DNA of 59,896 nt, counting the filler, from Dimargaris cristalligena (Eukaryota), in assembly GCA_003614675.1 (NCBI GenBank). It is 8 parts of 8 records of this genome, joined end to end, with 100 filler letters (N's around TTAATTAATTAA, not from the genome) between each part and the next. Parts side by side here need not be neighbours in the genome. Positions count along the whole stretch, not along the records: positions 1 to 7,462 come from ML003414.1; 7 more parts are not named here. The stretch is one strand, 5' to 3'. A model generated the notes under the pieces. The model saw nothing but the letters and a program-made list of their open reading frames with translations. It did not search any database and was not told the origin of the DNA. A program made the translations under genes and the position numbers. Positions 1 to 43,969 of this stretch are shown piece after piece (within the stretch, counting starts at the first letter, position 1; each line of letters starts with the position of its first letter).

Positions 1-1420
1 AAAAAAGAGGGGATTTGGAAAGGTCACTAGCATATCTAGTAGTATGCAGGACAGAGGCAAGAAGGTGTAAAAGGGAATCAAGTAGCAAGGAATTATATCT
101 AAGGCAATACTTGGCAATAAGGGTCTCTACCCTAATAGCCATGGGTGGAAGGTGTGAAATATGTCTAAGGACAGAAGTGGAAGCAGATTTATAGGCCCCA
201 ACCAGCATTCTTAGGCAGGACCCTTGTATCCTTTCCAACTTTTCCAGTTGGCTATCATTCCAGGTAGAGATGGCTAGGCCATACTCCATAACTGGTCTGA
301 TAAGAGAAGCATAGAGCCTGGAACTAAGGTGGAGGTTAAACCCAGATTTATTAAGACCAATGTAGGAGAAAGCAGAGAGCCTCTTGATAACCTTAGGGGT
401 AAGGTAGTCCAGGAGAGCATTAGTAGAAAGGCCATAGGTAAGGAAAGGAACCCCTAGGTAAAGGAAGGAATCAACTAGGGGGAGAAGTTCACCATAGAGG
501 GAGAAGGAGTGGTGGGAAGATGGGCAGAGTACAGCACATTTTGTAGGGCTCCACCGGTAGCTAGTGGCTAAGGAATGTTCCTCAGCCAACTTGAGTATCC
601 TGGTAACAGCTGCCACTGAGCCATATAGGGTCATATCATCAGCATAAAGAAGAGAATTAATGGCTCCAGAGGGAGAAACAGAGTCAGGAAGAAGGGAAAC
701 AATAGGGGTAGTGGGGGTGGCAATAGCCCTTAGAGCAGCTGGGAGGGAGTTAATATAAATGGAATATAGGTGGGGACTAAGAACAGAACCCTGAAGTACA
801 CCTGTAGAGGGGGAGAAGGGGGTAGAGGAGAAGTTGGATAAGATCACTGAGACTTTGATATCATCAAAGAGGTGGGCAAGGAGAGAAACAAGAGCAGGTG
901 GAGCAGTAGAAGAGAGGGCTTGCCAAATAATCCTGTGATCAACAGTATCATAGGCAGCCTTGATATCCAGGAAAACAGTTACAGGGTAGTGGTAGTGGTG
1001 GAAGTAGTACTCCTTAATCAGGTTATGTAAACACAGGGCCTGGTCAAGAGCACTCCTCTGTGGCCTAAAGCCACCCTGGGCAGGATCAAGAGGGAGAGAG
1101 TATATATGTAAAAGTGGAGCTAGATAATACTCAAATAGCTTCCTAAATACAGAAGTAAGGGAAATGGGCCTGTAGTTGGCTGGGTCAGCTTTGTCCCCCT
1201 TCTTATAGATAGGGAACACCTGGGCCATCCTCCACAGAGGTGAAGTTAGGGACCAGGACCAACACAGGGTAAAAAGAGGGGCTAGAATATGGGAAAGGGT
1301 AGAAGAAATAGGTCTAAGCATCTCAGCCCTGATATGATCAGCCCCAGGAGCCTTGGCTCTAGGGAGGCAAGTGATGGCATCAGCTATCATAGAGGGGGTA
1401 AAAAGAAAGGGAGGTGTCTT
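1..1420 (-). mobile_element. LINE (non-LTR retrotransposon) reverse transcriptase fragment, CpG-erased; runs off the window start and is absent from the ORF track
   Basis: Manual minus-strand translation is stop-free for ~473 codons: KAPGADHIRAEM, PIYKKGDKADPANYRPISLTSVFRK, QGGFRPQRSALDQ, FLDIKAAYDTVD, GVLQGSVLSP, LLYADDM, YRWSPTKC, YLGVPF, RPVMEYG. Only one CG (555-556) in bases 1-1560. Confidence 0.95.
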
Positions 1421-2018
1421 AACCAGGTGGGCTTACTCTTAGGAGACTCTCACTGATAGAGGAGGGTTGTTGGATCAGCCAGTGGAGTATTGCATGAGAA
1501 GTATTAGGGCCTGGTCATAGTGGGTTATATAGCAAGAGAAGAGTACTATGGTGCAATAAGGCAAGATCGGACAGGACAATCAGTATTCTGTATTTAGGGA
1601 GGATTAGGTGGGCTAACAATTCATGACAATGGCCATGTGCTATGATAGCTTTATACTGATATTCTGGTTTTTATAATGAGATTCTGGATTATTTATAACA
1701 ATCAATTTACAACCTTAGTTTGAGGAGCCCTCTTCCTGCAATGGAAAGCAATTTTTTGTTCATAATTCCTATTTTCTTCTCAATTACCACTATCATAAAT
1801 AAAAACTAAAAATATATACTTTTCCTCAAAAATACAAAGATATTAAATACTTTTTCTTCAATGTCATGCCTCCCCATTCATTCCTCTGGACCTAGCATCC
1901 CACCTTCGTCTGGCCCGGGTACACCACCATCCATGCCCCAGTGCTCTGTACCTGAGCAGGGCATACCAACTGCTATGCCAAGTCCTAGCAGTGAATTGGA
2001 TAACCCTAATGCCAATAC

Positions 2019-2162
2019 ATATGGGTGAATATCAACCCAACTGTATAAGATTTTACACAATATGTGTATGGGATAATATGTGGGAGAATAACTTTTGACC
2101 AGTAATATTTACCTCATCAAATAGATTATTCATTATACAGCCTGGATAAACTTCTGCCATAT
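2019..2162 (+). mobile_element. 144-bp MITE family A, copy 1
   Basis: ATATGGGTGAATATC...CTGTATAA / TTATACAGC...AACTTCTGCCATAT imperfect ~30-bp TIRs; collinear with the other copies. Confidence 0.85.
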
Positions 2163-5062
2163 TAAATCGTCGGTCTCTGGTCAATTTAGCGAATGGGCTA
2201 GTCCCGAACTCCGGGATAATCTCCGCCTGGCCTCATTTAGCCTCTCCTCTGGACGGAATATACCAATGGGAGGCTATTCATCCATCACCAAAGGAAACCC
2301 CATTGGCCCATCCTCTTCTATACATTCGATTTACGGTCTTGTTCGTACTATCAGCCGCAAAGTCTTGAAAGGGGATACCCAACTGACGAGCCTAATAGTG
2401 TATGGATAAGATGGATCACCCCTATGGTTTTAACTCCACTCTATAGAGTCCTACAAGCTTGACTACCACGATGTCCTTGGACAAGCCTGGGCCTATAAAG
2501 GACTGAGGGTATATGCTATATACACCAATAAACACACGTCTACGTCACCCCCGACGCCCGGCCGATTTTCCATGCAGATGCTATATCTTCTATTGGATAG
2601 AGTGACTGTGATTTCTATTTAGATCGCTCCAGGTTGTGGTGGTCATTTTTACACATACCATATATATATATATATATAGTACAAAAAAGACCAGTTCCGC
2701 GGAATCTAATCTAAGAAATATAGTTTAAAGCGGGATGTGATCGAGAATACATTAAAGCTGATGCTGATTCAAAGGCATGAAATTGTCCCTAATTTTGCGC
2801 AGGTAATATTGGGTGAATGAAGGAGGAAGGGGATATGGTGGATGTACGAACGAGTATCATTCCAGAGGATGGGGTGATTGGTAGTTGGGTAACCACCACA
2901 ATTATAGGACCGAAATGGAGGGCAGATCTAATAGAATCCAAGGTATTTCTGGGGGGAGGCCCATGACCCGAAAGGGGCCAGCGGTGTGTAGCGAGCAAAG
3001 AACGGAAAGACGCCCCTTAATCGGTATAGTATGGGGACGGTTCTGGTTATTTTTCGCTTGAAAGAGGGCGTGTGGCTATTTTCGGATAGCGGGACTCAGC
3101 AAAGGGGATTAGATATAAAGGGGGCGAGATGTAAGTTAAGGGGAGAGTGTATAAGGGACAGACAAACGAGCGCGGACTGGAAAAAGATCGGACGCAGTGG
3201 AAGCGGTGCTGGCTTTGGTAGTGGTGTGGGCGACGGCTACACAAAGCAAGCGCGCCATGAGAGTTGGAATACTGAACCTAAACGGGGAATATCCATGGGC
3301 CTTGTAGGAGGGATATAATAGTTAAGTTGTATTACCACTTGCTCGAATATCCACCAACCCGCTGCCGACTCCAACATATGCCTAGTATTTCCGGATGCCG
3401 ATCCCACGCACACATTGCCCCACATACTCGACTGTCCCGATATTGTCGCTGAACAGCTAGCTACTAACAGACCTATTCATTAGGTAGATGATAGGTGGTT
3501 ATTCCCGTCATATTAAATACTATATACCGCACACACCGACTAACTAACAACCTACTACTTACTACTACTATACTACCCACCTTGCTGACCTCGCACATTC
3601 CCCACTCATACCTCTCTCTCTTCTCTAATTCTATTCTATATTATTTTATTCTATTATACCCTTTCTTATTCGTTCCTTTCACTGCCTTGGTATCGTGCAT
3701 GCGTTCCATTCTTCTCCGATCCGTGCGCGTCCATCCTGTAACCCCGGCCGGCCCCCCTTTCCCTTTTCTACTTCCTGTACCTCGAAGCGGCTCTGCCATT
3801 CTTGGGAAGGCCCCACTCGTGCGTATCCTCTCGTGCTCATCGTCCTATACTACCTACTCCTCTCCTCACTCAGCTCCTCTTTTGTTACCCTCCCCACACT
3901 CGTCTATCACTGAGCACCACCTCGCCAGCTTCGTAGTGCCCCCCGTCTTCGTTTTCAGCTTTGCCCTGGTTACCCACCCCTCTTCTACACTCACCCAATC
4001 TCGTCACCTCCCCCGCCAACCATGTTTTAGATAGAGTATTGCCTTCTCCCTTTCCCACTTCCTTCCTTCACTGGTTTCAAATCATACCTTATTCTCTATT
4101 TGCCCCGCTTTGTTATACTTTCTCGCTTCCTCCTTTATTATTAGGTATACCCTCAGCGAGTTTATTTAGGGCACCTTGTCTCGCTTATCCCTCTAGGCCC
4201 ACCCCCCCTTGACATTGCCTGGTTTTCGGTCGACTCCCTTGGCCCTTCCAGCCCGCTATACCTTTATTAGCGTAGTACCCGAATACGAAGCACCCCGTGA
4301 ATTCCAAGCCGCCTCGCCCATTTTACCAGTCCCTGCACTCCCCCCCTCCCGTCTGGTGTGGCTACAATTTATTTGGTGGTATATTCACCCTACTCACTTC
4401 CCCCCTGTTTAGGATTATTTTTTTTGTCCCACCACCTTTGCCGTAGTGTGTGCACCCTCCTTCTCCCCCAAGAAGCCGGTTCTAATTATCCATGCTAGCC
4501 ATAGAGTAGCGTGTGTTATAATAGTACCTGAACTGTCCGTATCACTGCTGCCCTTCTGCTCCATTCTCAGCCTCTGTGGTGATTTTAAATCTATGTGAAA
4601 CGCCCGCCAAAGCACACTGTTTTATACATCATCATCTCCTCCCCTTTTTCCTCTTCATACACACCCGCTCGCGCTCTCTAGGCCGTCGATTCACTCCTTA
4701 CTTGCTGACCCCTATCCAGCACGTGATCGTATTTACTTTTTGGGTGTCTAGAGCCATTTCGCTGGTTGCACACACCCTTCTCTGTCACTGTTGCTAATGT
4801 TTACCCTTGGCTCCTTTTCCCCCCCAACCGTTGTTGATTTGTTGCCCGTTTACGCCTCCAGGAATGTTTATTTATTCCTCCTATATTAACTAGCCTCGTC
4901 TTCGCCGCTGTTTACCGCTGCTTTATTCTGTATTTATTGCTTATCCTCTTCCCCTTCGATATCCCTTTTTATATTACACGCTCTCTTTCCATACCGTATC
5001 TCTCTTTATCGAATACTTCGTAACACATAGCCCCCTGCTCCATTGCTAGAACTGTGAGCTCC

Positions 5063-7246
5063 ATGACGCAATATATCCCCTTTTCCAAGAGGCACTGCAC
5101 CTGCTCCTCTTCTAGAAGCTGCCACTCAGACCCGTCGCCCTCTCTCGCCGCCAAGGCACGATACAGCAACCCCAAGCTCAGCACCCCAGCACCTGACTTG
5201 CCCACTCCGTCGACGTGTCTGGCCCACAGCTCCGCCGCCCGCCTAGAAATCGAAAAGGTAGCTAAGCTTATTCTAGCTTCCAAACGCTGCGTCGTGGTCA
5301 GTGGCGCGGGTATTTCGTGTAGTGCCGGTATCCCGGACTTCCGCTCCTCCTCGGGCCTCTTCAGTACCCTCAAAGAACAGCACGGGAATCATATTAACCA
5401 AGGCCGGGACCTTTTCGATGCCCAGTTGTTCAACAGCGAAACCACCACCCGTATTTTCCATCAGTTTATCGGTCAGTTCAAGCAGTCCATCGAGAATGTC
5501 CAGCCTACTCCTACCCACCAGTTCCTGTCCTGGCTACACTCCCAGGGTCGCCTGACTCGCTGGTACACCCAGAACATCGACGGCCTCGAGGCTAAAACCG
5601 GCCTATCGGTTCTGGGCCAACTCCGGGCGAAGCCATCCCTCGAAAAGGCCCCCGTGGGTCAGGACGAACTCGACTACTTTCGTTTCACTCCCTCCGATGA
5701 CTTGTACCCGGACCCGACCCAGCGGACGCTGCCCTCTCGTCCGGCCCGCAGCCTTTCCCCCGAATCACTCACCTCCTCCGATGACGGCTCAGCCCCCGCT
5801 AGCCCCCAACCCACCTCCACCCCTCTTAGTTCCCGGATCGCCACCCCTATGGGGTATCCTAGCCCTTGCACCCCATCGCGCATCTCCCGTGACCATAAAT
5901 CCACCGTGGTGCCCCTGCACGGCGATTTGGACCAACTGGTTTGTCCGCTATGCTCCACCTATTACCCCTTCACCCCGGCGTTCTTCTCGAGCTACCAACA
6001 GGGTGAAGCTCCCATCTGTCCCCACTGCGCTAAACTGAATGACAATCGCCTGGAAGCCGGCCGGCGGCCTATTAGTGTCGGCAAACTACGCCCTAATATC
6101 GTACTCTACAACGAGCCCCATCCATCCGGTGAACTCATTGCCAAGGTCATGAACACCGACGTGCGCCTCAAACCCGACCTACTGCTTATTTTAGGCACCC
6201 GGCTTAACGTTCACGGATGCAAAGCCTTGGTGAAGGCCATGGCGCGTACCGTGCGGCAGCAGAAACACGGGAAGATCATCATGGTGAATTTGGACCCTAT
6301 TCAGAGTAAAGAATGGGATGACCTGATTGATATCCAGGTTTTGGGACCCGCCGATGATTTGATCCGCGATATCATTCGCGTACGCGATTCGCAAACTTGC
6401 CTCACCCAGTTTTGGGGATCGTCCCACGAAGATCCATTCCACTCCGGCAAACCTCCGGCGTCCTCGCCCATTACCGACCCGGATACGGCGTCACGACCTG
6501 CCCCCACCAAGCGCGCGGCGGTCAAGCGAAACCGTAGTGCCACCCCAACCCCCGCCCCATCGGATGTCGAGACGCCGCCTAGTGTCGCTAGTCAGCCCTT
6601 ACCCAAGCTGAAGCGGACTCAGTCCCACACCGAACGACCCGTCCAGCGTCGTACCAGAGCACCAGTTGATTCTGCGGCGACCAGTTCGGCTGCGCCTCGG
6701 ACTTCGCGCCGGGCCGCTGGTCGCTCTCAATCAGTCGATAGCCAGTCGACTGTATCGAGTGACCAAGATGAGTTGCCCCCGCGACCCGCTAAGCGGCAGC
6801 GTAAGGCCTCGATCCCCACCGTTCAGCCATTGGTACTCAACAATGTCAATCAGACCTCCCAACCTACCCACGCTTCACCCAAAATGGAGATATCAGCCCT
6901 GCTTTCGAATGAGCCCTGCGAGTCCATACCTCTTATGTGCCTATCCACTGCGTTACCACTATCTCCCAAGCGCCCTGTCACTGTTCCTTCAACATCGGCG
7001 TCGCTTGCCTTGCCACCCGCCCCCATGACCCAATTTTTCAAGGCAACCAAGCCATCCGGTCTGCGGGCCCAGTCCAAGGGAGGCCGATCCAGTGGCCAGC
7101 CCAAGAAATTCAATTCCCCATTAATCTTGGGGAATACAGAATTGACCAAAACTATCCCTTTGACTTCGAAACTACCACCCATGCCGGCCACTTCCAATGC
7201 CCGGATAACAAGGAGTAGCTCCCGTCTTGCAACTTCTGTTCACTAG
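5063..7246 (+). CDS. NAD-dependent deacetylase, Sir2 family class I, Hst3/Hst4-like, with long disordered C-terminal tail
   Basis: SGAGISCSAGIPDFRS, YTQNIDGLE, PLHG..CPLC..CPHC zinc site, LRPNIVLYNEPHP; first ATG at 5063. Confidence 0.93.
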   Translation: MTQYIPFSKRHCTCSSSRSCHSDPSPSLAAKARYSNPKLSTPAPDLPTPSTCLAHSSAARLEIEKVAKLILASKRCVVVSGAGISCSAGIPDFRSSSGLFSTLKEQHGNHINQGRDLFDAQLFNSETTTRIFHQFIGQFKQSIENVQPTPTHQFLSWLHSQGRLTRWYTQNIDGLEAKTGLSVLGQLRAKPSLEKAPVGQDELDYFRFTPSDDLYPDPTQRTLPSRPARSLSPESLTSSDDGSAPASPQPTSTPLSSRIATPMGYPSPCTPSRISRDHKSTVVPLHGDLDQLVCPLCSTYYPFTPAFFSSYQQGEAPICPHCAKLNDNRLEAGRRPISVGKLRPNIVLYNEPHPSGELIAKVMNTDVRLKPDLLLILGTRLNVHGCKALVKAMARTVRQQKHGKIIMVNLDPIQSKEWDDLIDIQVLGPADDLIRDIIRVRDSQTCLTQFWGSSHEDPFHSGKPPASSPITDPDTASRPAPTKRAAVKRNRSATPTPAPSDVETPPSVASQPLPKLKRTQSHTERPVQRRTRAPVDSAATSSAAPRTSRRAAGRSQSVDSQSTVSSDQDELPPRPAKRQRKASIPTVQPLVLNNVNQTSQPTHASPKMEISALLSNEPCESIPLMCLSTALPLSPKRPVTVPSTSASLALPPAPMTQFFKATKPSGLRAQSKGGRSSGQPKKFNSPLILGNTELTKTIPLTSKLPPMPATSNARITRSSSRLATSVH

Positions 7247-7462
7247 CCCCATCATTTGCTTTGCCTGATGCTTTTTTATATATCTTTCTATAGTTTTTTT
7301 CAGTAATAGCCTAACTCTGGTTTCTTTCTACTATTTAGAAAGCCATTCCCTTTCTGTACTGTTTTTATTTATATTTTTGCTCGCCCCCCCTGTACTCTAA
7401 TCCTCGTGAATAATTGAACTAGAATTAAAAATAATTTGCCATGGTGCACATTAGTCATGTTG

Positions 7463-7562
7463 NNNNNNNNNNNNNNNNNNNNNNNNNNNNNNNNNNNNNN
7501 NNNNNNTTAATTAATTAANNNNNNNNNNNNNNNNNNNNNNNNNNNNNNNNNNNNNNNNNNNN
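7463..7562. other. Artificial contig-joining linker N-TTAATTAATTAA-N; also at 14992-15091, 22507-22606, 30020-30119, 37500-37599, 44975-45074, 52439-52538
   Basis: Identical 100-nt spacers carrying six-frame stops; the pieces decrease monotonically in size (7462, 7429, 7415, 7413, 7380, 7375, 7364, 7358 nt). Confidence 0.97.
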
Positions 7563-7904
7563 TTCTCTAGCGAATTGAAATGGTTGGGAGAGAGTGAAAG
7601 TGTACTATGGAATAATAGTTATTTGGGAAAGGAATGCGGCTAATAATCTACGTGACCGGCACGATGAATTAATTAACCGAGAGAAAATTTAATGGGGGTG
7701 GATAAAGGATGGACTGCAATGCTGAAATACCAAATGGTAGCGAAACTAGTATTTGGGTAGCTAATTGAGGAAGAGCAGGGTGTATATAAACCAATATGGT
7801 AAAAGGTGGCAACTGGCTAACGGCTATTAATTGTTTTTAAAAAAGAAAAGCGGATGTCGACAAGTATCAACGAAGGGAAGGATGAAATGGTGATTATTTT
7901 AAAA
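7563..7904 (-). repeat. Near-identical duplicate of the LPMO upstream leader region 13749-14090
   Basis: Direct repeat offset by 6186 nt; about 5 mismatches in 342 nt by eye. Confidence 0.93.
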
Positions 7905-9151
7905 GGAGGTAGGTGGGGCAGACGCTTTTTATATGTAAATATCTGTACCACAGCTCCGCTTCTACTACTGCCTGTGTGCGGAAAGCGGGAATAGAGGTTA
8001 GTGGGCTTGGGGATAAAAACACATACTTTCGTGGATCCATAGTCAAGCGAGACTTCCGACTGGCTGAACATGCCCACTTCCTAAAGTCCGCTTCATCGAT
8101 TTGCGAGTGACCCTGTATATACGCGGGCTACCGATGTCTAGGGATCTTTGGATCGGGCACCTTTGTCTACAGCAAGGGAAATGATTGAGAATCTTGCTGG
8201 TATATATTTACCCTGCCCCGTACCACCCAGCGGGTCCCATCATTATTCTGTTGAGTTAGCTAATTGTTCTTCCCTCTTATTCAACCCTCCCGAATTTTTG
8301 GATTGCATACTAAGTCACTCTCGCAGCCTAATGCCGCTACTCCCCTTTGCTGTAAAATCGCCGCCGATATCGTCCGATATTAGGATAAGTCGTTTAGGGA
8401 CCTTTTTTTGCCGCCAACATGGGCCCCAGCTTACAATTTGTTTATCAATCTAAGGCGCGGGAGTTAAATGAGGTAGAATAGGCGACGGACGGAATTTATT
8501 AAAAGTAGGCTAATTGATATGAGTGGATGGTGAATCCAAGTGCTATTTACGGATATTAAGATTTTAATTTGCGATGCACTTTATCCTGGTATATGTATTG
8601 CAGCCAACTATCTAACTACCATGTAAAATCGAGAGCGACCAAATAATATAGCACCTCTGATGTGTAGGCCAGAAAGGGTTTGAAATTTATATACTGATTT
8701 TGCTGGGTTTTTTTAAATAATGGACCCATTGGATATGCTTACATTATACACCCTTCCTCATTACCAAATTATGTTTAAAAAAATGCAAAATAGGGTAGAT
8801 TCTATAAGATTATCATAGCTTTCTCAGTAATTTCATTTGAATTGATATAATTTTGTATTCTGTCACCCAGGTTAACCACTCTTAGTCCATTAAGAGTCCT
8901 GAGGATAGGCTTCTAATGGTAGGTGGGGCTTAGACTTAGCCAAGTAGGCTACTAGCATTAGGATGGGGTGCAGTACTAACCAATAAAGGATAAGTACATG
9001 TATATGCAAGGGACATGCAGTGGGCACACTTACTAGTTAATATAAGGGGGTGAGTATATAGAGAGTTTATTGAGGTAAACTATGGGGGTATGAATAAGCT
9101 AAGGAATTAAACCAATCCCAGTGGGGCCCAGTTATATATATGTGGGGATAG

Positions 9152-9657
9152 TGTCATAACAGGTTGATTTGAACTATAAGAATAACCAGCCATACAAGTA
9201 AAAACCCATACCAATGGATGGGTAAATTAATATTAACATTACAGAAATATATCCCCATTACCCTACTGTGTTTTATTTCCATTGTTATATTCCCCATATT
9301 ATCTAGATACTGATTCATATAGGTGAAATTCGGCCCAGCTATATAAGGGTTTCCATTATACATGTATGGGAAAATATATGGGAAATGTATTTTTAACTAG
9401 TAATATTGGCTGAATTTAATGGATTTTTCATTATATAGTTTAGATGAAAATCTCCCATATTCATTAGTCATCATTATTCTTTCCCTGCCCCTTGAGTCTA
9501 GATATAACCCCAACCGTTTTCCCACAGTGTGCTCTTTAGCTTACAACTCCTCTTTTATTTTGTCTTATTCTGATATTTATCCTAATAAATTTATTCCTGT
9601 CCTTTGAAGTCTGGTCCATCCTGTGGTACCTGGCCTTAATACTGACCCATCATAACA
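9152..9657. mobile_element. Nested solo-LTR-like element (family C)
   Basis: TGTCATAACAGG...CCCATCATAACA inverted termini; 5-bp TSD GATAG at 9147-9151 and 9658-9662. Confidence 0.85.
9317..9460 (+). mobile_element. MITE family A copy 2, inside element C
   Basis: ATATAGGTGAAATTC...GAAAATCTCCCATAT, 144 bp. Confidence 0.85.
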
Positions 9658-9957
9658 GATAGCTCCAGAGGGAGGTCCCAAGGGAAATGCTACTAAGACT
9701 AAGGTATAGGTAGATAGATAGACTGACTAGATGGCTTTGTATCTGGAAGAGTCTTTGGATCATCAGGTTGAGTATTTTATATGAAGCACTGGGGCCGGAA
9801 GGAGAAGGGTTATATACTGAATGATGATCCCAAAGTACTGAGGGTAACTATGGGAGGGTTAATATGGTACTATAAGGCCTAATAAGGGAGGACAATTGTT
9901 AAGTCCAGATTAAGTCAGATTAGGAGGGCCAACATATTCAAACTTAATATTTTATTA

Positions 9958-10537
9958 TATTACCTGGATTAACCACTATTAGTCCATCAAGAGTCCCAGG
10001 GATAAGCTTCTAATAGTAGGTGGGGCTTAGAATCAGCTAAGCAGGCTACTAGTATCAGGTATGGGCCATAATACAAATAAATAAAGGATAAGCAGTAGGG
10101 ATATGTAAGGAATGTGTAGTCAGTACACTTACTAGTTAATAGGGGGGAGTAAGTATATATAGGGTTTATTAGAGCAAACTAGGGGTAAGAATAAGCTAAG
10201 GAAATTAATTAGTCCCAATAGGGCCCAGTTATATATATGTAGGGATGACTCCAGAGGGAGGTCCCCAAGGAGGACACTACTAAGACTAAGGTATAATAAA
10301 TAAGCCAACTGGACAGCCGTGAGGATCTGGAAGACTTAGGTGGTAACTGGAAGAGCCTTTAGATCAGCACTGGGGTGATTGGTGTAAACCAAGGAGTCCA
10401 GAAGGGGAACAGTTATATGATATAGGGTGATCCTATAGTACCAGGGGTGACCATGGGGAGCTTAATATGGTGCTATAAGGCCCAGTAGAGATGGATGATC
10501 ACTATATCTGGATTAAGTCAGATTAGAAGGGCCAATA
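9958..10537 (+). mobile_element. Solo LTR family B copy 2
   Basis: Full-length homology to copies 1 and 3; termini mutated to TATTAC...GCCAATA; no matching TSD seen. Confidence 0.85.
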
Positions 10538-10660
10538 ACCTCATTACTAGAAGGTGTGCCTTGACGTATTGATTTATTAGAATCTCCTATAGAGTAGATA
10601 CTGGTGTAATATTCAATAGGTGCATACCATATGGATTCGTATTGAAATAAAAGTATTTAG

Positions 10661-11239
10661 TATTAGCCCTCCTAAACTGACTTAATCCAGTCCTAATGAT
10701 TGCCCATCCTTATTAGGCCTTATAGTGCCATATTAACCCCCCATAGTTACCCCTGGTCCTATAGGTCATCCTTTATTATGTAACCCCACTCATTTGACCC
10801 CAATGCTTTGCACCCAAACACTCAACTCACTGATCTAAGACTCTTCCAGTTCCCATGAGAGTCTTCCTGAGGCAAGCCATCTGGTCGGATTCCTTACCTA
10901 TCCATACCTTAGTCATAGTAGTATTTCCCTTGGTACCTCTCTCTGGAGCTGTCTCCATGTATATATAACCAGGCCCCACTGGGACTAGTTTGATCCTTAG
11001 CTTATTCATATCCCCCAGTTTACCTCAATAAACTCTATATACTCATCCCCCCTTGTACTGACTAGTAAGTGTGCCTGCTGCATGTCCCTGGCATTTACCA
11101 GCATCTATCCTTTATTGGTTTATAATACACCCCCATCCTAATACTAGTAGCCCACTCAGCCAAGCCTAAGCCCCCACCTACTGTTAGAAGCCTATCCTTG
11201 GGAATCTTGATGGACTAAGAGTGGTTAACCCAGGCAACA
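10661..11239 (-). mobile_element. Solo LTR family B copy 3
   Basis: Reverse-complement copy starting TGTTGCCTGGGTTAACCAC; 5-bp TSD TTTAG at 10656-10660 and 11240-11244. Confidence 0.9.
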
Positions 11240-11325
11240 TTTAGCATTGTGATAGTAATCCAATAGCATAATTAAACTTTGAATTTCATATACCATATCC
11301 TCAAAAAGAAAGAGTTCACAAATAT

Positions 11326-11469
11326 ATATGGTAGAGGTTTGGCTGAGCTGTATGACAAAAAATCCATTGGGTGAAGTAAATATTACTGGTTAACAATAAA
11401 TCTCCCATATATTATCCCATATACTTATCATTTAAACTCTTATACAGCTGGTCCGAATTTCACCCATAT
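11326..11469 (-). mobile_element. MITE family A copy 3
   Basis: ATATGGTAGAGGTTT...GAATTTCACCCATAT, 144 bp. Confidence 0.85.
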
Positions 11470-12574
11470 CTCACTGAATAACTTATTAAATATAGATGAG
11501 TGTACTATAAAATAAGAAAACTGAAGAATGCATATTAATCTTTTAGTCTAGGTGAAATCAGCATGATGGCAAATGATAAGTATATTAATAATCAAATTCC
11601 TCTCTAGCACTTTCAGTACTGTAAGGCCATCACATGGGGGACTCTAGTAAGTGAATAATTGATGGCACTTAATAATGTAAACTTAATAGAAAAATACAAA
11701 TGTATCCCCATTCCAAAATAATCCAATACTGGGATACACTGAGACATGTCTATTTTAAATGAAACTACGGAGGGCCTAATGCTAAATTTTCTAACAAAAT
11801 GCACCAAATTAGAGGTGAATATTGTATCAATCATATGTTTTATGCAATTCTACTCCATAGTAAGTGCTATGGAAGGATCCAACTGGCAGTATAGCCCTAT
11901 GGCTCGCGAATTTTAAGTATTACTTGGTATATAAAATACACATTAGCCCTGATTATATGCTAGCCTTTCTACTAGGTGAATGTGTTAACAAGTGTATTGG
12001 TCATCCATAATACTATATAGACATGCCCTATTTCAGGTGGTAACCAACAGAACAGTAGCCATAGGTCGATTAGCCGTACATTGACGTTCAATGCCTATTG
12101 ATAGATTATGAGACCCAAAATAAAACATTTATTCTTAATTTACATATTGTCACTGCAGGATTTGTGGTCTGCTTTAAGGAGAGAAGTGAAGCACAGCTTC
12201 TGTTGCATGTCTTTGGTTGGCTCAATAGGCTCAATCATGCCAAATGCCAGCAATGCGATTATAAATAAAGAAACAATTATCTGAAAGAAATATATATATA
12301 TATATATATATAACAACCAATAGTCCGAAGGGGGGGTGTCTTGCTATGAATTATGTCGCGGAAACCAGTTCCTTGACATACACCAAGACCGGGTGGCCGT
12401 CCGGAATGATAGACCCGGTTATCGCAAAAGGGGCGCACCCTTATTGACTTTACTAAAATTTGAGAATCTCTTCGGGAAAGGGAAAAGATCAGTAGGGTCG
12501 CGTATACACAGTCGAAAGAGGCCAAAGGACAGACAAATAAACGTCAAAGTGTCAAACGAATCGGAGGGGGGAAA

Positions 12575-13540: not shown

Positions 13541-14111
13541 TTTGGTAACTGGATTGATAAGAAAAAGAGGAAACGGGTCACACGCTAGGCGAGAAAATAG
13601 ACTGTAAATATTGGAGAAGAGGATAAATCACCGTCGTTGATGGTTCCAAAAAAGTTGATAACTCGTCGATAACCGAATAAGATAATGGGTAGAGGTAGGG
13701 AAAAACAGTAATAGTATAGCCAGCCAGCCTTGCAGAATAGTCCAATGTTTCTCTAGCGAATTGAAATGGTTGGGAGAGAGTGAAAGTGCACTATGGAATA
13801 ATAGTTATTTGGGAAAGGAATGCGGCTAATAATCTACGTGACCGGCACGATGAATTAATTAACCGAGAGAAAATTTAATGGGGGTGGATAAAGGATGGAC
13901 TGCAATGCTGAAATACCAAATGGTAGCGAAACTAGTATTTGGGTAGCTAATTGAGGAAGAGCAGGGTGTATATAAACCAATATGGTAAAAGGTGGCAACT
14001 GGCTAATGGCTATTAATTGTTTTTAAAAAAGAAAAGCGGATGTCGACGAGTATCAACGAAGGGATGGATGAAATGGTGATGATTTTAAAATGGGGTGGGC
14101 GATGTAGGCGC

Positions 14112-14119
14112 TATTTATA
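14112..14119 (-). promoter_or_regulatory. Candidate TATA box of the LPMO gene
   Basis: TATAAATA on the minus strand just upstream of the duplicated leader; TATAAAA at the equivalent position (7927-7933) in the duplicate. Confidence 0.5.
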
Positions 14120-15092
14120 AGGATGAGACTACGTGGGTCTCCACCCCACCCTTGCCGTGTCACTAAATTGACATCGATAGTTCCGATTAACTAGGACTCA
14201 TACCTACCCGTTGTCCTCCTCTGGCATTGGAGCGGGCGGCCAAGACTTGACAAATCTCAGACATATCCCCTATCCGTGCTATGAGCTGCAATCCTTTTAC
14301 TCTGGGTGACCCCGAGCCACTCTATGAGTCGCTGGGCTCGATTCCCACATAGCGGCGATGGAACTGACAGTTTTCTCCTAATTCATCCGCTTTTCACGTT
14401 TCGCATTTCTCTCGACTAGCCCACGCCATTATTAATACTGTCTCTCTAGCCGTTCTTTTGGCGCACTTATTAGAGCGAATATTCCTCCTAGACTTAGCCA
14501 TAATCGCATATTCTCGAGTGGATCCCCTTTGTCCGGCACAAGGGGGTCCGAATTTAATATCCGAGAACTGCGATGGTGCGAAAAGAAGAGTATACAAATT
14601 TCACGAAGGGATTGGGTAAAGGCAATGAGTTTGGTCTACTCTATTTTAGTGGACGAAGATGGGCTAATGATGAAGGGGGGAAGAGAGGAGAGTCCTTTTT
14701 TGGCGGAAAACCACCTTATGTTATTGAATGTCCATAGGCCATTACATCCGATGCCCCCTTGGCACAAAGACCCCTGCTGGCCACAGTGACCAAAGGGAAT
14801 CCGATGACCAGATCGTATCACCAGGCAAGAGTCGGGGCAGTGAAAACACCGCCTCTCTCCTCTCTCATACTACCTCGAGACTCGGATTATATCCCAATAA
14901 ACATCACCCTCTATATTAGGAGCCGCACCCTCCAGTACCCCCCCTTTCGAGTCATCTGGCAAATAACCTAACTTCGGGCAGTCGGGTAGAANNNNNNNNN
15001 NNNNNNNNNNNNNNNNNNNNNNNNNNNNNNNNNNNTTAATTAATTAANNNNNNNNNNNNNNNNNNNNNNNNNNNNNNNNNNNNNNNNNNNNT

Positions 15093-15245: not shown

Positions 15246-15818
15246 CCCGACAAACCCCAAAATGTCAGGTGGGTCGCCTATGGACAGCTCCACTCCGTGT
15301 TCCTCCTCTTTTTGAACTCAAACCTTATTGTCCTGGAGTATTTTCCTGACTTAGGCCGTTGTCAAACAAATATATAAATATGCCTATATAACGGCGTGGA
15401 TATGGTACGCAATGCGAAATTAAACGACAACTGCTAGGCTGTATGATGGGACTCTCAAGATTTTATTATCGACATTCATAGCGAGGGGGGGGGGAGTGCC
15501 AGTGTATATGTAGGTTTTAGTATATTCTTGGTCAGAGCGACTGTGGGAGGGGGGAGGTGAACATATGTAATTAAAAGTATATTAATATTTTATTGCGACG
15601 AGGAACCCGGGATGATGTGAGATATTCTTATTTTTATACACTGGGTTTGTTTGTGTGGCCCGCTTAGCTAGTAACTATCCATAGCCTGTGTGACGGTGAG
15701 CTGACGCTGGTGGGGTTGGGCGATTTCCCAGGTTCTGGGTACTTGACCCCACCCATCAGTGACACTAATAGACCCAAGCTAGTACGGTGGTTAACCACTC
15801 TTAGTCTATTAAGAATCC

Positions 15819-15920
15819 ATATGGGAGAAGTTCATCCAAGCTGTATAACGAAAAATCCATTAGATGGGGCCAACATTACTGATTAAAATGGTATACAGCT
15901 GGCTTGAATTTCACCCATAT
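15819..15920 (-). mobile_element. MITE family A copy 4 (internally deleted), abutting a 30-bp LTR-B end fragment (15789-15818)
   Basis: Both TIRs retained, 102 bp; preceded by GGTTAACCACTCTTAGTCTATTAAGAATCC. Confidence 0.8.
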
Positions 15921-21755: not shown

Positions 21756-22660
21756 GAAGCTTCTATATTGGGGACGTGGCCTTGAATTAATTGGAACCCC
21801 ACGGCTCCCCCCCACCCAAAAAACAATGGAGGGTACATGGGTCACCCATACAATACCTACGACGAACTAAAATGAAGGGCTTCCCCCGCCTTTGTTCAGT
21901 CTCGATCTCATAAATATGGACTAGGCCGCGATGCTAAAACCCCTCTCCCCCTCACGCACTCTCTCCCCGTATACCTTATGCCCTCCGCCCCCCTTCCGTT
22001 CGTTAAATAATTGGTTAACGTTGGGTATAGCGATAGCCCCCAACAATCAAGCCCGTTCGAGGGGCTAGGCTGTCGATCATTTCGAGCGGATAGACGTAAG
22101 CAACTAGTATAATGTAACGGGAGGAGAAAAATGCGATTGATTGGGACTCTCGGAACGGGGGTACAAAAGTAGAGCAGTCTTTGCTTTCTTGGACCGTTCA
22201 TGGCATAGCCAATCGGACTGGGCCCGCTCTCTTTGTCGAGCGACATACACACAATTACTACTCTACCCACCTACTCGATGGAGCGGCCGCTGAAGGCTGT
22301 CGATCAAAGGGAGAGGAATGAGGGAGGGAAACTACCCCCCCCCACACACACACACATACTATATTCGCCGCTATGCGGGTCGGCGGCCTCAACTAGACTC
22401 GTTTTTAACACCATCAAAAAAACGCGTTTAATTACGCGCATCCTGGTAACGGCATAAATACCGTCGGTGCCGCTGCCATTTACTAACAACTATCGTATTC
22501 CTCGGCNNNNNNNNNNNNNNNNNNNNNNNNNNNNNNNNNNNNNNNNNNNNTTAATTAATTAANNNNNNNNNNNNNNNNNNNNNNNNNNNNNNNNNNNNNN
22601 NNNNNNAATTGGGGGGGTGGGGGGGGACGGAGGGCGAAAAATGAGTAACGGTATGTCTAT

Positions 22661-28242: not shown

Positions 28243-28387
28243 TGGTATTAGCTGTTCGGCCCAGCTGTATAAGATTTCAAATGGCATGTGTATGGGAAAT
28301 TAGGCCGGAAATTTATTTTTCAACCAGTAGCATTTGCCTTATCCAACGGAGTTTTATTTATACAGGCTGGCTGAATCACTCTCATTG
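28243..28387 (+). mobile_element. MITE family A copy 5, degenerate ends
   Basis: TTCGGCCCAGCTGTATAAG...GTGTATGGG...AACCAGTAGCATT...TTATACAGGCTGG internal homology. Confidence 0.7.
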
Positions 28388-28698: not shown

Positions 28699-28842
28699 AT
28701 ATGGGTAAAATTCAAACCAGCTGTATAAGGTTTTACAATATACGTGTATGGGCGAATATATGTGAGAATATCTTTTAACCAGTAATATTGGCCGCATCCA
28801 ATGGATTTTTCATTATACAGCCTAAATGAACTTCTCCCATAT
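28699..28842 (+). mobile_element. MITE family A copy 6, best-preserved
   Basis: Left TIR ATATGGGTAAAATTCAAACCAGCTGTATAA vs reverse complement of right TIR ATATGGGAGAAGTTCATTTAGGCTGTATAA. Confidence 0.88.
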
Positions 28843-29829
28843 TGAAGTATTTCGTGGTGACTATGTTGTACTAAACGATCCCAGTGGTGGCAGTTTCCTG
28901 CCTGGGAGTAGCTATTCAATGGGTTTAAGTGGAACATGATCAATTTTCGCGCCCATATCATGGATACGGCTGGTATAACATATATCCTGGGACGTTGGTG
29001 CATAAGAGCGTAAAATAAATTTACTTTTTGGACCACTTGTATCTAGTCTGAAGATATCGATAGTAGCACCATAATTTCCGCGACCTACCCACTCGAACTG
29101 ATTTGAATTCCTTATAACAGCCACCAATTGCATTAATGATAACAGGCCGTATTCCGTGTTGCCATATTCGATTTCAAAAAATGGCATCTAAGATTCGCTC
29201 TATCAAAAGAAAAAGCTATTAGGTATACTGTTTTCCAGTTAATTGGGCAGTTGCTTGATACCTAGTCGACATTAAATTGTGAATATAGAAATAATGAAAT
29301 GACTTTTATTACTAAAAGAGAAATATATACTCTGTTATGGGTTAGTTGAAAAGAGTTTGAATTATTAACAATCACTTATGGATTTTATTTTTTGATTAAA
29401 ACTGGGGCGTAGAGAGATGATTGAAGCAGATAAGGACAAATAGGTCCAACGGTGGTTCCAAATCCAATATAAATTTGGTCAGGGCCTGGCAATACCATCT
29501 ATTCAAAAGTCAAAATACTTATGAATATAACCAAGCCCATTTCCGCCACCATTAATCAATTAACAAACTCAGCCACCAAGCCTTTGTCTGTTGCTTGGAT
29601 GACTGGTGTAAAATTGCCAATTGGTCTTCGGTTTCAATACCACATAAAATTAATTGGTATAAACCGGAAAAATAAGGAACGTTGCACTAAATAATACGAA
29701 ATTAGTACAAAAGGGTGGAAGTTCCTCATCAGTAAAAGCTATTAATCAAAATACATGTAATAATAATAACACACTACATATATCCCGAAGAATAGAACCC
29801 TTCCACCATCATAAGTGATCCTTGGTATT

Positions 29830-30018: not shown

Positions 30019-30695
30019 GNNNNNNNNNNNNNNNNNNNNNNNNNNNNNNNNNNNNNNNNNNNNTTAATTAATTAANNNNNNNNNNNNNNNNNNNNNNNNN
30101 NNNNNNNNNNNNNNNNNNNTGATCCTCGAGTTATAAGTAAGAACTATGAATACTAAATACTGAATATTGAATGTTGAATATTGGAAAAACGGCCTAGTCA
30201 TTGAATGGCTTATAACTGGGTGGGAAAAGATGAAGACTGGTATTTGGTGATGTTCTTCATCTTCCTAAACTAAAAATAGTTTGGCCGGGATATACTATTA
30301 GAGATTAAGCAGGCCCGGCCACAACAACAGACTGAGTGGTTAATCTGGGAAATAAATTAGTAGTTTATAATAAAAAAAGACAAATATTAATAATGATTTT
30401 TTATCAAAATTCTTAGTCAGTTACATTATACCTTTCCTATATTGAATCTCCAGGGTCATCCCAGTCTTACATGCACTGACTGGTACACTAGTTTATTGGG
30501 CCTATTAGGGAAAGCAAAATCCATGGGATATATTATATAGGGAAGTATTATAAATACATGTTCAAATTGTAGAACAAAGGAAGAGGTGGCCCCACCACAG
30601 GACCAACTTAATAAAGAATAGTACACCAAATTCTGAACATCCATCCTCATAACCAAACCCGAAAAATTCTCGAGGTCCAATTAAATCAAGAAAAT

Positions 30696-35956: not shown

Positions 35957-37499
35957 TTACAGATACGACAAGTCGACCACCCGGCAGGGTTTGGGTCGAA
36001 TGGGAGTCTGCTGGGTGACTGCCGTAGTGGCAATCGGGTGCGAAAGTCGTTCCCGACTGGCTCGGTTATCCGACTCTGAACCCGAGTCCGTTTCCATTCG
36101 TTGGAAGGGTTTAAGTGGCCTGTTATTATTCCTATGACCCGTCGGGAGCGGGGCTGAAACGGATGTCGGTTGATTCGGGTTCATTCCACCTCCGCCTTCG
36201 CCACCCGCAACGTCACCGTCGCCGTCGCCGCCGCTGCCGTTGTTGTTGTTGTTGTCGTTGCCCATGAGACGGTCGAGTAAGAACGCCCCCAGCATAGTAT
36301 TNNNNNNNNNNNNNNNNNNNNNNNNNNNNNNNNNNNNNNNNNNNNNNNNNNNNNNNNNNNNNNNNNNNNNNNNNNNNNNNNNNNNNNNNNNNNNNNNNNN
36401 NCCTTCCTTGTGACGACTAATCTCAAATACATGGCAATTTCCAACTACCCACAACCCCACGTCCCTGTGTCTGGCTTGCGCTTGGCAGCCCCAGCGGACC
36501 GCCCCCGATAAAACCAACGCCGCCCGCAGCAGCCTCTTTAGTTTTCCCTTTTCCCTGCTCGACAGCATCGATGCCAATTCGAATGGAAGGGGTACAATGA
36601 CTCCGGACCACAGTCTGTGGGAACGGCTTACTACGGTGATTCAGAACCAGGCCCGGTCCCTGGGCCTAGCTCTGACGGAACCCATGAGCCAGGAGTGGTT
36701 CACCACCGACTGGTCCCTGGCCACCCATACCCGGGGTATGTACAGTGCGGACGAGCCTAACCTTAGCGCGTCGGCCATCAACTCGAGCAACGAAATGGAA
36801 TTCATGTACCAGACGGATACGGAGGCGGGTATGCTGAGTGATACCGCCCCGCCTACACCCCGTCCGTCGTCGACCTCTGAATCAGCCTCATCATCGCGGG
36901 TCGACTTGACGTCGTTAATGATGAGCCAGGCCAATTTGGTGCTGAGCCAGAGTCACCACCGCCAATTGGAGCGCCAGCGACAACAACGCCACCGGCAGTC
37001 GATTTCCCGTAGCGCAGAATACCACCACCAGCAAGGGTCCGAATTAGCAACCGGACTGACGCGTGCGTTGGCGGATAGCGAAGCCTACGGGCGAAGCCGA
37101 GGGGCCCGGAGTTGGTCGGTTGGTGAACCAGAAACACCCCCCCCGCGTTAACCACGGGACTAGTGGGCATGATAGTTGGCTTACCTTCACTACACCAACG
37201 ATCGCGGCCACCCCCGCCGGTTCACCCCTACTCACCCCAACTTCCACTCCTATGGCCACGACCCCGGCACCATCCTCGACCGCCATGGAAGGGTCGCTAT
37301 TACCCACCCCCAGCTTGCCGAGTAGTTTGGCCCAGTTGATGGACCTGGTCAACGAATACCAGCTTCGGTTCAGTAACCTTCCCAACTTACTGCCGCCCAA
37401 CTGGGCCCCCCCAGCTGGAATTCTGGTCACCGACTTCGCTCTTGCCACCCATTGACATTGACCTGGAAGCGACTTTCGAGTCCCTCCTACCCCAGAAGG
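35957..37499. other. Fragmented or mis-assembled low-complexity gene: plus-strand body ~36480-37499 with two poly-C frameshifts, and an inverted C-terminal-like piece 36301-35957
   Basis: Frames switch at C-runs near 37137-37144 and 37405-37412; about 55 bp is duplicated at ~35628-35682 and 36402-36456 across the N100 gap (36302-36401). Confidence 0.5.
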
Positions 37500-37599
37500 N
37501 NNNNNNNNNNNNNNNNNNNNNNNNNNNNNNNNNNNNNNNNNNNTTAATTAATTAANNNNNNNNNNNNNNNNNNNNNNNNNNNNNNNNNNNNNNNNNNNN

Positions 37600-38946: not shown

Positions 38947-40914
38947 ATGTCTAACTCCAACACTCCCACCAAGTCCCCCTCTACTGCCTCCAAGAAGTCA
39001 TCCAGCAAACCAACCCGTATGTCTGACACCGAGTTTACTAGGCTCAGTCTTATCAAGGCCTGGGTGATCAAGAACAAGGCCTCCATTGCCTGCCTCAAGT
39101 GTAACACCAAGGGTCACATCACTGACCATGGGGGCAAGCGTTTCAACTGCACCCTCTGTAATAAGCGCTTCAGTAAGGCAAGCCTGTGTGAGGCCCGCAA
39201 CCCTAGGCTGTTCCATGAGCTGGAGGCCAAGTACCCTGATCTCCAAACTGCCCCCAGGCAGCATCCCCCTGCCCAACCTACCCCTGTGACTGCTGCTTCT
39301 ACTGTCTCCAAGCTTGTGGAAGCCAGCACTGTGGTAGTGGAACCTGCTGGTACCAAGTCCTCCAAAGCTGGCCCCCCTGATTGCCAATCTCCTGATCCCA
39401 CCTCTGGTCCTATCATGTCCACCCAGGGCAAACGTCCCCACCTGTCCCCCCCAGTGTATGCCAACAAGAGGCATTGCTCTTTGCCCAGCCGTCCCACTGT
39501 ACCAGCTGAGGCTACCTATGCCGATGTAGTTAAGCGCCTGGGGCTGAAGGGTGAGGCCCAGCAGAAGTCTGGTCTATTGGCCTTACAGAAGCTTTATGCC
39601 AAACCCCAGAAGCCTGAGCTAGTCTATGTCCGAGGCATCTCACGTATGAGAATCCGGGCCCTTAAGGATATCCTATACTCCTTGGGGTTCTATCTTCCAT
39701 CCCTCTTGAACATCTGCTATCTAGGGACAGAGACTGTTGAGTTCCTGGTGGCCCCTACCTATGTGGATGTTTTCAAGGGGAAGGTTAAGGCTGTTGAGCT
39801 CACTCTTCTCCCCAAATTCTCCACCACTGGTGCTACGGATCCTGATGCCTCCCCAGCCATGAAGGAGTGTATCTTGCAGGCCTTTATCAAGCGGGCCCAT
39901 AAGATCATTGCTGGTACCAGGAACCCCCTTGTTGCCCAGACCTTCCGAGATATTCTGGTGCAGAATAAGGTATACCAGTTTTCTGCAGCCCCCCTCCTGG
40001 CAGTCCCAGCCATCCCCTCACCAAGCCCCACTGCCCAGTTACCCAAGTCCTCTGCCCACCTAGCCTATACCACTGGAGAACTGCCCAAGGCCCATGTCCA
40101 TCCATTCCCACCATGTGGTGAACTCAGCCCTGTTCTTGATATTCCCCATGAAGAAGGTGACACCCCCCTTCAGTGTCACTTACATATGGATTCTCCCTTT
40201 TTATGTGGTATGTTAACTGGGTCACCTGGTATGTCCTGTGATACTACCCATAAGCCTCAGCCCAAGATGGTCATTATCAACAGTCCAGTCCTGTCCTCCT
40301 CTCCCTCCCCAGAGCCAACCAGTCCCCACTTGTCCCCCTCCAGTTACCATCTAGAGGCCCCCTGCCTGGATGACCAGTCCCTGAGCCCCATGCACTATGC
40401 CAGCCCTGCTGCAGAACCCCCCAGTTCTGATGGTGAGTCCCTTGATTTCCTCATCTTGTCAAGCCCAATCCCTGGCACTACCCCCCAGCCTCACCTAGCC
40501 CAGCCACCCAGCCCTCCCCTCCCCTGGGGTGATGCCCAACTCCCTACTATGGATAGTTGTGACCATGTGGGTAATGATGTGGTAACATGTCCCCCTGTAT
40601 CTACCCAGGGGAGTTCCACAGAGAATGCTGGCTTAGCTAGACTACGTAGTATTGTTAGCTCAAACCAACAGCCTACTACTTCTACCAAGGTATGGACCAT
40701 CTGGGATAAGAATGACCATATCTTCCGGGAGCATACTATGCAGGATATCCAGATGTGGGCAGATATCTTACAGTATCCTAGTGGTACTTGTGAGTATCCG
40801 GTTCCCAACCTTGAAACTATGATAGCCAACTTGGATAAGCAGGTGGTAGATAGCATGGTTGAATATAGGAAGTGGGTTATAAGCCAACAAGATGCCCCCC
40901 AGTCTTTCCAATGA
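38947..40914 (+). CDS. LINE ORF1 protein, 655 aa
   Basis: N-terminal CLKC-x14-CTLC zinc ribbon; RRM-like VYVRGISRM...VEFLV block; Pro/Ser-rich C-terminal half; directly upstream of ORF2. Confidence 0.8.
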   Translation: MSNSNTPTKSPSTASKKSSSKPTRMSDTEFTRLSLIKAWVIKNKASIACLKCNTKGHITDHGGKRFNCTLCNKRFSKASLCEARNPRLFHELEAKYPDLQTAPRQHPPAQPTPVTAASTVSKLVEASTVVVEPAGTKSSKAGPPDCQSPDPTSGPIMSTQGKRPHLSPPVYANKRHCSLPSRPTVPAEATYADVVKRLGLKGEAQQKSGLLALQKLYAKPQKPELVYVRGISRMRIRALKDILYSLGFYLPSLLNICYLGTETVEFLVAPTYVDVFKGKVKAVELTLLPKFSTTGATDPDASPAMKECILQAFIKRAHKIIAGTRNPLVAQTFRDILVQNKVYQFSAAPLLAVPAIPSPSPTAQLPKSSAHLAYTTGELPKAHVHPFPPCGELSPVLDIPHEEGDTPLQCHLHMDSPFLCGMLTGSPGMSCDTTHKPQPKMVIINSPVLSSSPSPEPTSPHLSPSSYHLEAPCLDDQSLSPMHYASPAAEPPSSDGESLDFLILSSPIPGTTPQPHLAQPPSPPLPWGDAQLPTMDSCDHVGNDVVTCPPVSTQGSSTENAGLARLRSIVSSNQQPTTSTKVWTIWDKNDHIFREHTMQDIQMWADILQYPSGTCEYPVPNLETMIANLDKQVVDSMVEYRKWVISQQDAPQSFQ

Positions 40915-43937: not shown

Positions 43938-43969
43938 CTTCCTGTGGGCTGGACGCAACCCATCTTAAT

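Follow-up and report, generated by a model that had tools for sequence, protein, structure and literature searches.

The usual picture of early-diverging fungi is one of little 5-methylcytosine (5mC), and to our knowledge Dikarya is the only group in which C-to-T mutation directed at repeats has been established. In mammals, the active lineages of L1 have been under long methylation-driven CpG decay, and young dead copies are born CpG-poor. Here we analyzed a 59,896-base stretch of DNA from Dimargaris cristalligena (the window), in which positions 1–1416 are occupied by a 5′-truncated copy of a multi-copy long interspersed nuclear element (LINE), designated LINE1, and positions 38947–43937 by a second, apparently intact LINE, designated LINE2. 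Both have lost CpG. An earlier reading of the LINE1 sequence (the original prediction) had proposed a CpG-targeted defence resembling repeat-induced point mutation (RIP), whereby CG is converted to TA on both strands. We consider instead that LINE1 was probably dead on arrival and born CpG-free, and that its TA dinucleotides probably arose neutrally in two separate steps under likely repeat methylation.

Phycomyces, a member of Mucorales, is reported to carry 5mC on its repeats in CG and CHH contexts (PMC11258239; PMC13297926), and repeat-restricted 5mC is reported for Linderina, a member of Kickxellomycotina (PMC11258239). As in such repeat-methylated fungi (Phycomyces blakesleeanus, Linderina pennispora, and most Basidiomycota), the genes of the window keep CpG and the repeats form sharp-edged deserts, and the intact element, LINE2, has lost silent CpG, keeps CGN codons for Arg, and shows an excess of TpG. 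The non-CpG component of the changes described below also fits the CG and CHH methylation reported for Phycomyces transposons. Unlike in these fungi, the loss of CpG in LINE1 is nearly total (observed-to-expected ratio, o/e, 0.01), Arg has moved to AGR codons, and the pattern is known here from sequence alone.

The changes in LINE1 resemble canonical RIP (RID-dependent; Pezizomycotina, Neurospora crassa) in that C-to-T and G-to-A changes occur in repeats, CpA is preferred, TpA is created, and clustering by strand is possible. They differ from it in that CpG seems to be the best target (only two CpG sites were available), the dose is about 3%, no stop codons are present, intact elements persist, and the lineage lies outside Dikarya. 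CpG-type (TpCpG) RIP-like signatures are reported in Pucciniomycotina (PMC3318451), and a dual CpA and CpG signature is reported in Tuber melanosporum (PMC4352252). The window shares with these fungi transposon copies that have a C-to-T bias at CpG, here accompanied by CpA as in Tuber; however, Dimargaris belongs to a different phylum, and the comparison covers only 20 changes in dinucleotide context only. In Zoophthora radicans (Entomophthorales), a composite index gives a hint of RIP over 24.2% of the genome, for which the authors state caveats (PMC11105155). This fungus also belongs to Zoopagomycota and suggests that RIP-like mutation may exist outside Dikarya. The Zoophthora evidence consists of composition indices only, whereas in the present window the index is unspecific and the evidence is alignment-based and polarized, although it comes from one copy and one further family. 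LINE1 is like mammalian L1 in that an active LINE lineage has long been under CpG decay, and unlike it in the host, the LINE clade, and the degree of depletion.

A literature search for methylation or RIP in Dimargaris, DNMT1 in Zoopagomycota, and RIP-like signatures in early-diverging fungi returned nothing on this organism and no methylation or RIP data for its order, Dimargaritales; the supplements of PMC12543289 and PMC11258239 may list DNA methyltransferases or RIP scores. The present data add, as an example from Zoopagomycota, a Dimargaritales genome in which CpG deserts cover every sampled repeat and spare the genes, in which an intact LINE bears a clean mark of selection, and in which a dead copy shows a polarized CpG-plus-CpA preference. 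Dimargaris is a cheap test case for deciding between active mutation of zygomycete repeats and their methylation in CG and CH contexts after the manner of Phycomyces.

CpG depletion of the repeats

Positions 1–1560 contain one CG, as the original prediction had counted, although their base composition would lead one to expect about 77 (o/e 0.01). The CpG desert spans 1–2167, with 4 CG, and ends abruptly; CpG density is normal from 2168, which is the edge of the last repeat. All the other long repeats of the window are CpG-poor too, namely those at 8637–12066 and those from 37600 to about 46000 on the pieces that hold LINE2. CpG o/e was 0.87–1.04 in the host open reading frames (ORFs), including SIR2 (5024–7246) on the same piece as LINE1. 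Accordingly bimodal, CpG o/e is low in repeats and normal in genes, and the borders between them are sharp. The repeat-restricted loss of CpG is real and goes far beyond chance. The host genes are thus as CG-rich as had been claimed, yet most of them lie on other pieces than LINE1. The window consists of eight pieces of about 7.4 kb each joined via N44-TTAATTAATTAA-N44 linkers, and because it is such a concatenation, most host genes in it are not neighbors of LINE1; only 1–7462 is contiguous with the LINE1 region.

The depletion extends to codon choice. Of the 203 host Arg codons, 193 are CGN, whereas LINE1 uses CGN in 1 of 21 and AGR in the remaining 20. The only CpG of the LINE1 copy (555–556) lies in a sense CGG codon for Arg.

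LINE1 (1–1416, minus strand) is a non-long-terminal-repeat retrotransposon copy that runs off the left end of its piece and keeps only the reverse-transcriptase and C-terminal part. Its ORF (2–1432, minus strand) has 477 codons without a stop, among them 6 Trp and 8 Gln codons, just as the original prediction had described, and it matches RVT_1 (PF00078) with an E-value of 3.9e-25 over residues 79–329. Full-length relatives carry a PF03372/PF14529 endonuclease together with RVT_1. The N-terminal apurinic-type endonuclease (APE) is absent from the LINE1 copy, which is cut at about 1416; since the endonuclease lacking here is present in the full-length relatives, LINE1 is a truncated member of the APE-type LINEs. 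The contigs of other LINE1 copies run on with unlike sequence from 1414–1416. They leave the window sequence at this point, which indicates that the copy is 5′-truncated, without endonuclease, and dead on arrival.

A second LINE1 copy was not found within the window by tblastn and blastn, and protein searches found no LINE1 copy of the source organism among the matches listed (best 120 of 471 and best 120 of 206). The best identity to the LINE1 protein was 56% for near-length relatives (best 120 of 471) and 58% for longer ones (best 120 of 206). The named relatives among these 240 best protein matches are all Mucoromycota (Rhizopus, Mucor, Absidia, Circinella, Umbelopsis, and others), with none from Zoopagomycota. 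This restriction may reflect an old host-to-parasite transfer, or merely which genomes have annotated repeat ORFs.

Comparison of LINE1 with its other copies

Five public runs of one organism hold 80–92% of the sampled words of 1–7462. Contigs of runs X1, X2, and X5, and of run X6 from a second organism, were placed on 1–2200 at a likeness of at least 80%, giving 486, 477, 610, and 16 contigs, respectively. Such hundreds of contigs indicate that this DNA is multi-copy. X6 covers 18 of the 30 depth bins over 1–2200 at a depth of 2–18, and is of no use for questions of habitat or transfer. The differences considered between the window copy and the other copies were the best-supported 40 of the 249 variable places over 1–2200, and 28 of these 40 lie in 1–1416. 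Four long contigs differ from the window copy at 41 of 1,491 positions, or about 3%.

When the 28 best-supported differences were reverted to the letters of the other copies, the number of CG in 1–1416 rose only from 1 to 2; the single difference that restores a CpG is at codon 22 (CGC in place of TGC). The LINE1 family was therefore already almost CpG-free, and the depletion was inherited and not made in this copy. CpG depletion belongs to the lineages of the elements and is no peculiarity of the window copy.

The case for concerted CG→TA mutation had been made from four motifs compared with those usual for LINEs, three ending up as YADDM, LHNL, and TSYRW and the fourth changing from FER to FEY. 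The quoted codons (GAT ATG, CAT AAC, ACT AGC, and GAG TAT) are all present in the window frame; what differs from the prediction is their origin. At codon 267 (632–634, minus strand), the window has ATG (Met) and the other copies GTG (Val) after GAT, with T versus C at place 634. At codon 137 (1022–1024, minus strand), AAC (Asn) replaces GAC (Asp) after CAT (place 1024), and at codon 291 (560–562, minus strand), AGC (Ser) replaces GGC (Gly) after ACT (place 562). The other copies thus read GAT|GTG, CAT|GAC, and ACT|GGC, and each of the three residues is due to one G>A change at TpG, private to the window copy, and not to a double hit on a CpG. All ten differences of the contig covering codon 137 (record 19) were accounted for, none of them at 1025 or in the preceding codon, and 13 of the 14 differences of the contig covering codons 267 and 291 were accounted for.

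The fourth motif involves codons 102–103 of the reverse-transcriptase frame, TAT TAT (Tyr Tyr; 1124–1129, minus strand). Codon 102, which follows GAG, is TAT in the window and in the covering contig alike, and this check relies on the one long contig covering the codon, whose differences are all listed. Tyr at 102 also occurs in one relative, a LINE protein of Umbelopsis isabellina. Being common to the contig and this protein, Tyr102 does not indicate a CGT ancestor. At codon 103, the window has TAT (Tyr) and the other copies TGT (Cys) after TAT, again by a single G>A change at TpG (place 1125).

The polarity of these changes is given by more distant relatives. At codons 103, 113, 147, 267, 268, 279, and 291, the letter of the other copies encodes the residue conserved among 26 Mucoromycota relatives (25 Mucorales and 1 Umbelopsis). 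Val is found at 267 in 26 of 26 and Gly at 291 in 25 of 26, and Cys is the commonest residue at 103 (14 of 24); the window residue is the commoner one at a single site, 319. X6 covers 10 of the listed places, all in 117–477; it agrees fully with the other copies at 9 of them and partly at the tenth, 305.

A concerted both-strand conversion of CG to TA is not supported by these results: the family already has the letters from which single steps suffice, and single-step formation of TpA is frequent enough, as described below. Both findings had been named in the original prediction as grounds for rejecting it, and by that standard the concerted mechanism is refuted. A second, non-CpG step, which the original prediction had offered as a fallback, agrees with the single G>A changes at TpG. 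Its overall interpretation is thus supported where it concerns a zygomycete host, a loss of CpG restricted to repeats, and a second non-CpG step, and not supported where it concerns the concerted event. For readings made from sequence only, this is a caution, as apparent double hits against a general motif turned out to be single hits against the element's own family.

Mutation spectrum of the LINE1 copy

The 28 differences in 1–1416 comprise 20 G:C>A:T changes, 4 A:T>G:C changes, and 4 transversions (20 vs 4, p = 0.0015). The contexts of the 20 G:C>A:T changes are CpA/TpG (13), CpC/GpG (5), CpG (1), and CpT/ApG (1). CpA/TpG accounts for 26% of the C and G positions, so that 13 of 20 is well above expectation (binomial p = 3e-4). 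Per site, the rates are 7.3% for CpA/TpG, 2.1% for CpC, and 0.4% for CpT, and CpG changed at one of only two available sites. The order of preference per site is CpG > CpA/TpG > CpC > CpT, with the CpG rank based on those two sites.

Fifteen of the 28 differences created a TpA and none removed one; with the differences reverted, TpA o/e is 1.09 instead of 1.19. The rate of TpG/CpA to TpA change in the copy is thus high enough to explain the TpA excess. Fifteen of the 28 are also nonsynonymous and fall at near-invariant residues, which argues that selection did not act on the copy. Given these rates, the 8 Gln and 6 Trp codons should together have yielded about 1.6 stops, and the probability of finding none is 0.21; the open frame therefore argues neither way.

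On the plus strand, the changes within LINE1 are 11 G>A and 9 C>T. They are arranged in runs between 117 and 1369, with seven G>A (117–485), then six C>T (562–844), and then a mixed order. In a permutation test chosen post hoc, the number of runs gave p = 0.05, the length of the longest run p = 0.045, and that of the two longest p = 0.011.

A family of four non-coding repeat units (U family) shows a context bias like that of LINE1. In an unpolarized count, 19 of 27 columns before A are C/T-variable, whereas of those before C or T only 27 of 88 are (Fisher p = 3e-4). The alignments thus point to a CpG-plus-CpA preference of C-to-T change in one copy and one further family.

Selection signature in LINE2

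LINE2 (38947–43937, plus strand) has two open ORFs. ORF1 (38947–40914, plus strand) encodes 655 amino acids and has no Pfam match; ORF2 (40869–43937, plus strand), which overlaps it by 46 nt, encodes 1022 amino acids with RVT_1 and shares 29% identity with LINE1 across 392 residues. LINE2 has a CpG o/e of 0.13–0.17. Of its 47 CpG, 39 lie in Arg codons, and 39 of its 75 Arg codons are CGN. Silent CpG is nearly gone, with NCG in 5 of 495 four-fold codons and C|G at 3 of 419 codon boundaries before G, and TpG is in excess (o/e 1.56 in ORF1 and 1.23 in ORF2). This pattern is that of CpG-to-TpG/CpA decay under purifying selection, and LINE2 may still be active. LINE1, in which Arg has moved to AGR, is further along the loss of CpG than LINE2.

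Origin of the CpG loss and of the TpA excess

We put the probability at roughly 0.7 that LINE1 is a dead-on-arrival copy, born CpG-free, in which TA then arose neutrally in two steps under likely repeat methylation. Active LINE lineages would have been gradually stripped of CpG, with purifying selection preserving the function of their proteins. This loss would most likely be due to cytosine methylation that is carried by repeats and not by genes, in CG and some CH contexts, with deamination to thymine; we infer this from the sequence, with Phycomyces and Linderina as analogues. The LINE1 copy would have inserted in a 5′-truncated and already CpG-free state, and would afterwards, free of selection, have come to differ from the other copies by about 3%, mostly by G:C>A:T changes. 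TA would accordingly be the product of an old CpG>TpG/CpA step at the level of the family and a recent TpG/CpA>TpA step at the level of the copy. Such TpG>TpA and CpA>TpA steps would have made the Met, Asn, Ser, and Tyr residues that resemble CG→TA double hits. Either deamination in methylated repeats or a RIP-like process of mild strength would fit the preference for CpG and CpA.

Several points weigh against this explanation. The strand-wise runs of G>A and C>T are not predicted by random deamination. The 3.5- to 18-fold preference for CpA/TpG relative to the remaining non-CpG contexts exceeds what is usually credited to spontaneous deamination of unmethylated C, so that non-CpG methylation or an enzyme would be needed. 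LINE1 has no excess of TpG and CpA combined (o/e about 1.0; CpA 1.23 and TpG 0.82 on the plus strand), which implies that its CpG loss is old or took routes beyond simple transitions; the shift of Arg to AGR in 20 of its 21 Arg codons needs a transversion. In addition, contig depth is not equal to copy number, and the spectrum is drawn from 28 places in one copy (out of the 40 best-supported of 249).

The alternative that fares best is a RIP-like defence, in which enzyme-driven, repeat-directed C-to-T hypermutation with a CpG and CpA preference acts on duplicated DNA and produces the copy-level changes and possibly also the CpG loss of the family. We regard it as unlikely, though well ahead of the other alternatives. 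The CpA/TpG preference seen in two unrelated repeat families, the 5:1 excess of G:C>A:T over the reverse, and the strand-coordinated runs of G>A followed by C>T would all be expected from it, but the test of the runs is marginal and post hoc. Also in its favor, a repeat-adjacent stretch of 1 kb on the 3′ side of LINE2 (43938–44974), which is CpG-free, TpA-rich, and poor in CpA/TpG, has a TpA/ApT of 1.81 and a (CpA+TpG)/(ApC+GpT) of 0.61; it matches neither of the two LINE proteins. The composite RIP index reaches 1.31 at 44001–45000, its sole extreme value in the window, but this index is not repeat-specific, as it exceeds 0 in 27 of 118 index windows, of which only 7 are CpG-poor. The dose is also low, with about 3% divergence and 477 codons without a stop, and intact LINE2 persists. 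A combined CpA and CpG signature is reported in Tuber (PMC4352252) and a composite-index hint in Zoophthora, also of Zoopagomycota (PMC11105155), whereas a kingdom-wide k-mer screen is reported to have detected repeat-enriched signatures in Ascomycota only (PMC12543289). That Dimargaris itself runs an enzyme-driven, repeat-directed cytosine deamination, with a CpG and CpA preference and working on one strand at a time, of RID-independent or pre-Dikarya origin, appears doubtful and marginally less probable still. LINE lineages would then survive by purging CpG and shifting Arg to AGR. A RIP-like defence outside Dikarya is possible and, if real, rests on the CpA/TpG preference and not on CG→TA.

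It is very improbable that the base composition was imported or selected, i.e., that the LINE came by horizontal transfer from a CpG-poor Mucorales host or avoids CpG under pressure from a CpG-reading silencer. Dimargaris is a parasite of Mucorales, and the named relatives of LINE1 among the 240 best protein matches are Mucoromycota throughout. The best identity of 58% is nevertheless far from that of a recent transfer, and the list of protein matches may be biased; as far as we know, repeat-encoded proteins of Zoopagomycota are probably rarely annotated. Moreover, CpG is also scarce in unrelated repeats (LINE2, the U units, and non-coding flanks), and the change in density is sharp at the repeat borders.

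Lower again is the chance of the concerted mechanism, in which both cytosines of one CpG mutate together and give TA in one event. The T|A found across codon boundaries at four places where usual LINE motifs suggested C|G, and the TpA o/e of 1.19, had spoken for it, but at three of these places the other copies read T|G, and at the fourth an identical TAT. The TpA excess is largely private to the copy and single-step (15 TpA from 28 changes), and a CpG is restored by only 1 of the 28 differences. By the logic of replication, a CpG deaminated on both strands would be expected to yield one daughter duplex with TG and one with CA, but none with TA. APOBEC-like editing of LINE complementary DNA during retrotransposition would agree with the dominance of transitions between copies (148 transition against 47 transversion places in X1), but as both strands are hit about equally and a non-LINE repeat family has a matching context bias, we consider it the least credible of all.

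Host, window makeup, and other repeats

Piece 4 carries an eIF3g ORF that has 100% identity to an NCBI protein of Dimargaris cristalligena, followed by proteins of Tieghemiomyces (72%) and Dispira (67%), and an Atlas search confirmed it as eIF3g. The host is a Dimargaris-like fungus (Zoopagomycota, Kickxellomycotina, Dimargaritales), in line with the zygomycete host that had been assumed, and the pieces are also linked by a common family resembling miniature inverted-repeat transposable elements (MITE-like). Dimargaritales is described as an order of mycoparasites (PMC9866270). The linkers between the pieces lie at 7463–7562, 14992–15091, 22507–22606, 30020–30119, 37500–37599, 44975–45074, and 52439–52538, and a plain gap of 100 N is present at 36302–36401.

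The DNA on the 5′ side of LINE1 (1417–2018) is other repeated, CpG-poor DNA with 3 CG, on which many unlike contigs and loose ends were found. The part directly adjoining LINE1 (1470–1560) belongs to another abundant repeat, and loose contig ends at 1532 go on with letters like the 3′ part of the U units on pieces 2 and 7. DNA of these units is located at 8848–11239 (piece 2) and 45200–45684 (piece 7). Units U1–U3 lie, together with two MITE-like copies, in the CpG-poor repeat island at 8637–12066, which has 11 CG, and the fourth unit is that at 45200–45684. When the four U copies were polarized by majority, A>G and T>C outnumbered the reverse; we took this as an artefact of too few and heavily mutated copies and used the unpolarized count instead.

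A direct duplicate of 371 nt (7563–7933 and 13749–14119) at both ends of piece 2 is 96% identical and has normal CpG (12 and 13 CG). It was uninformative for the spectrum, its 14 differences being mixed and clustered at the right end. The MITE-like repeat of about 150 nt is present at 2019–2166 and in seven more copies (9317–9464, 11326–11469, 15816–15888, 28255–28365, 28699–28846, 55913–56056, and 59453–59570), on five of the eight pieces. The CpG desert around LINE1 stops at the right edge of the copy at 2019–2166. Unlike the long repeats, the MITE-like copies hold about half of the expected CG (21 against about 40); their numbers were too small for use as a control for the spectrum. Within 1–2200, the MITE-like repeat has by far the largest summed contig depth.

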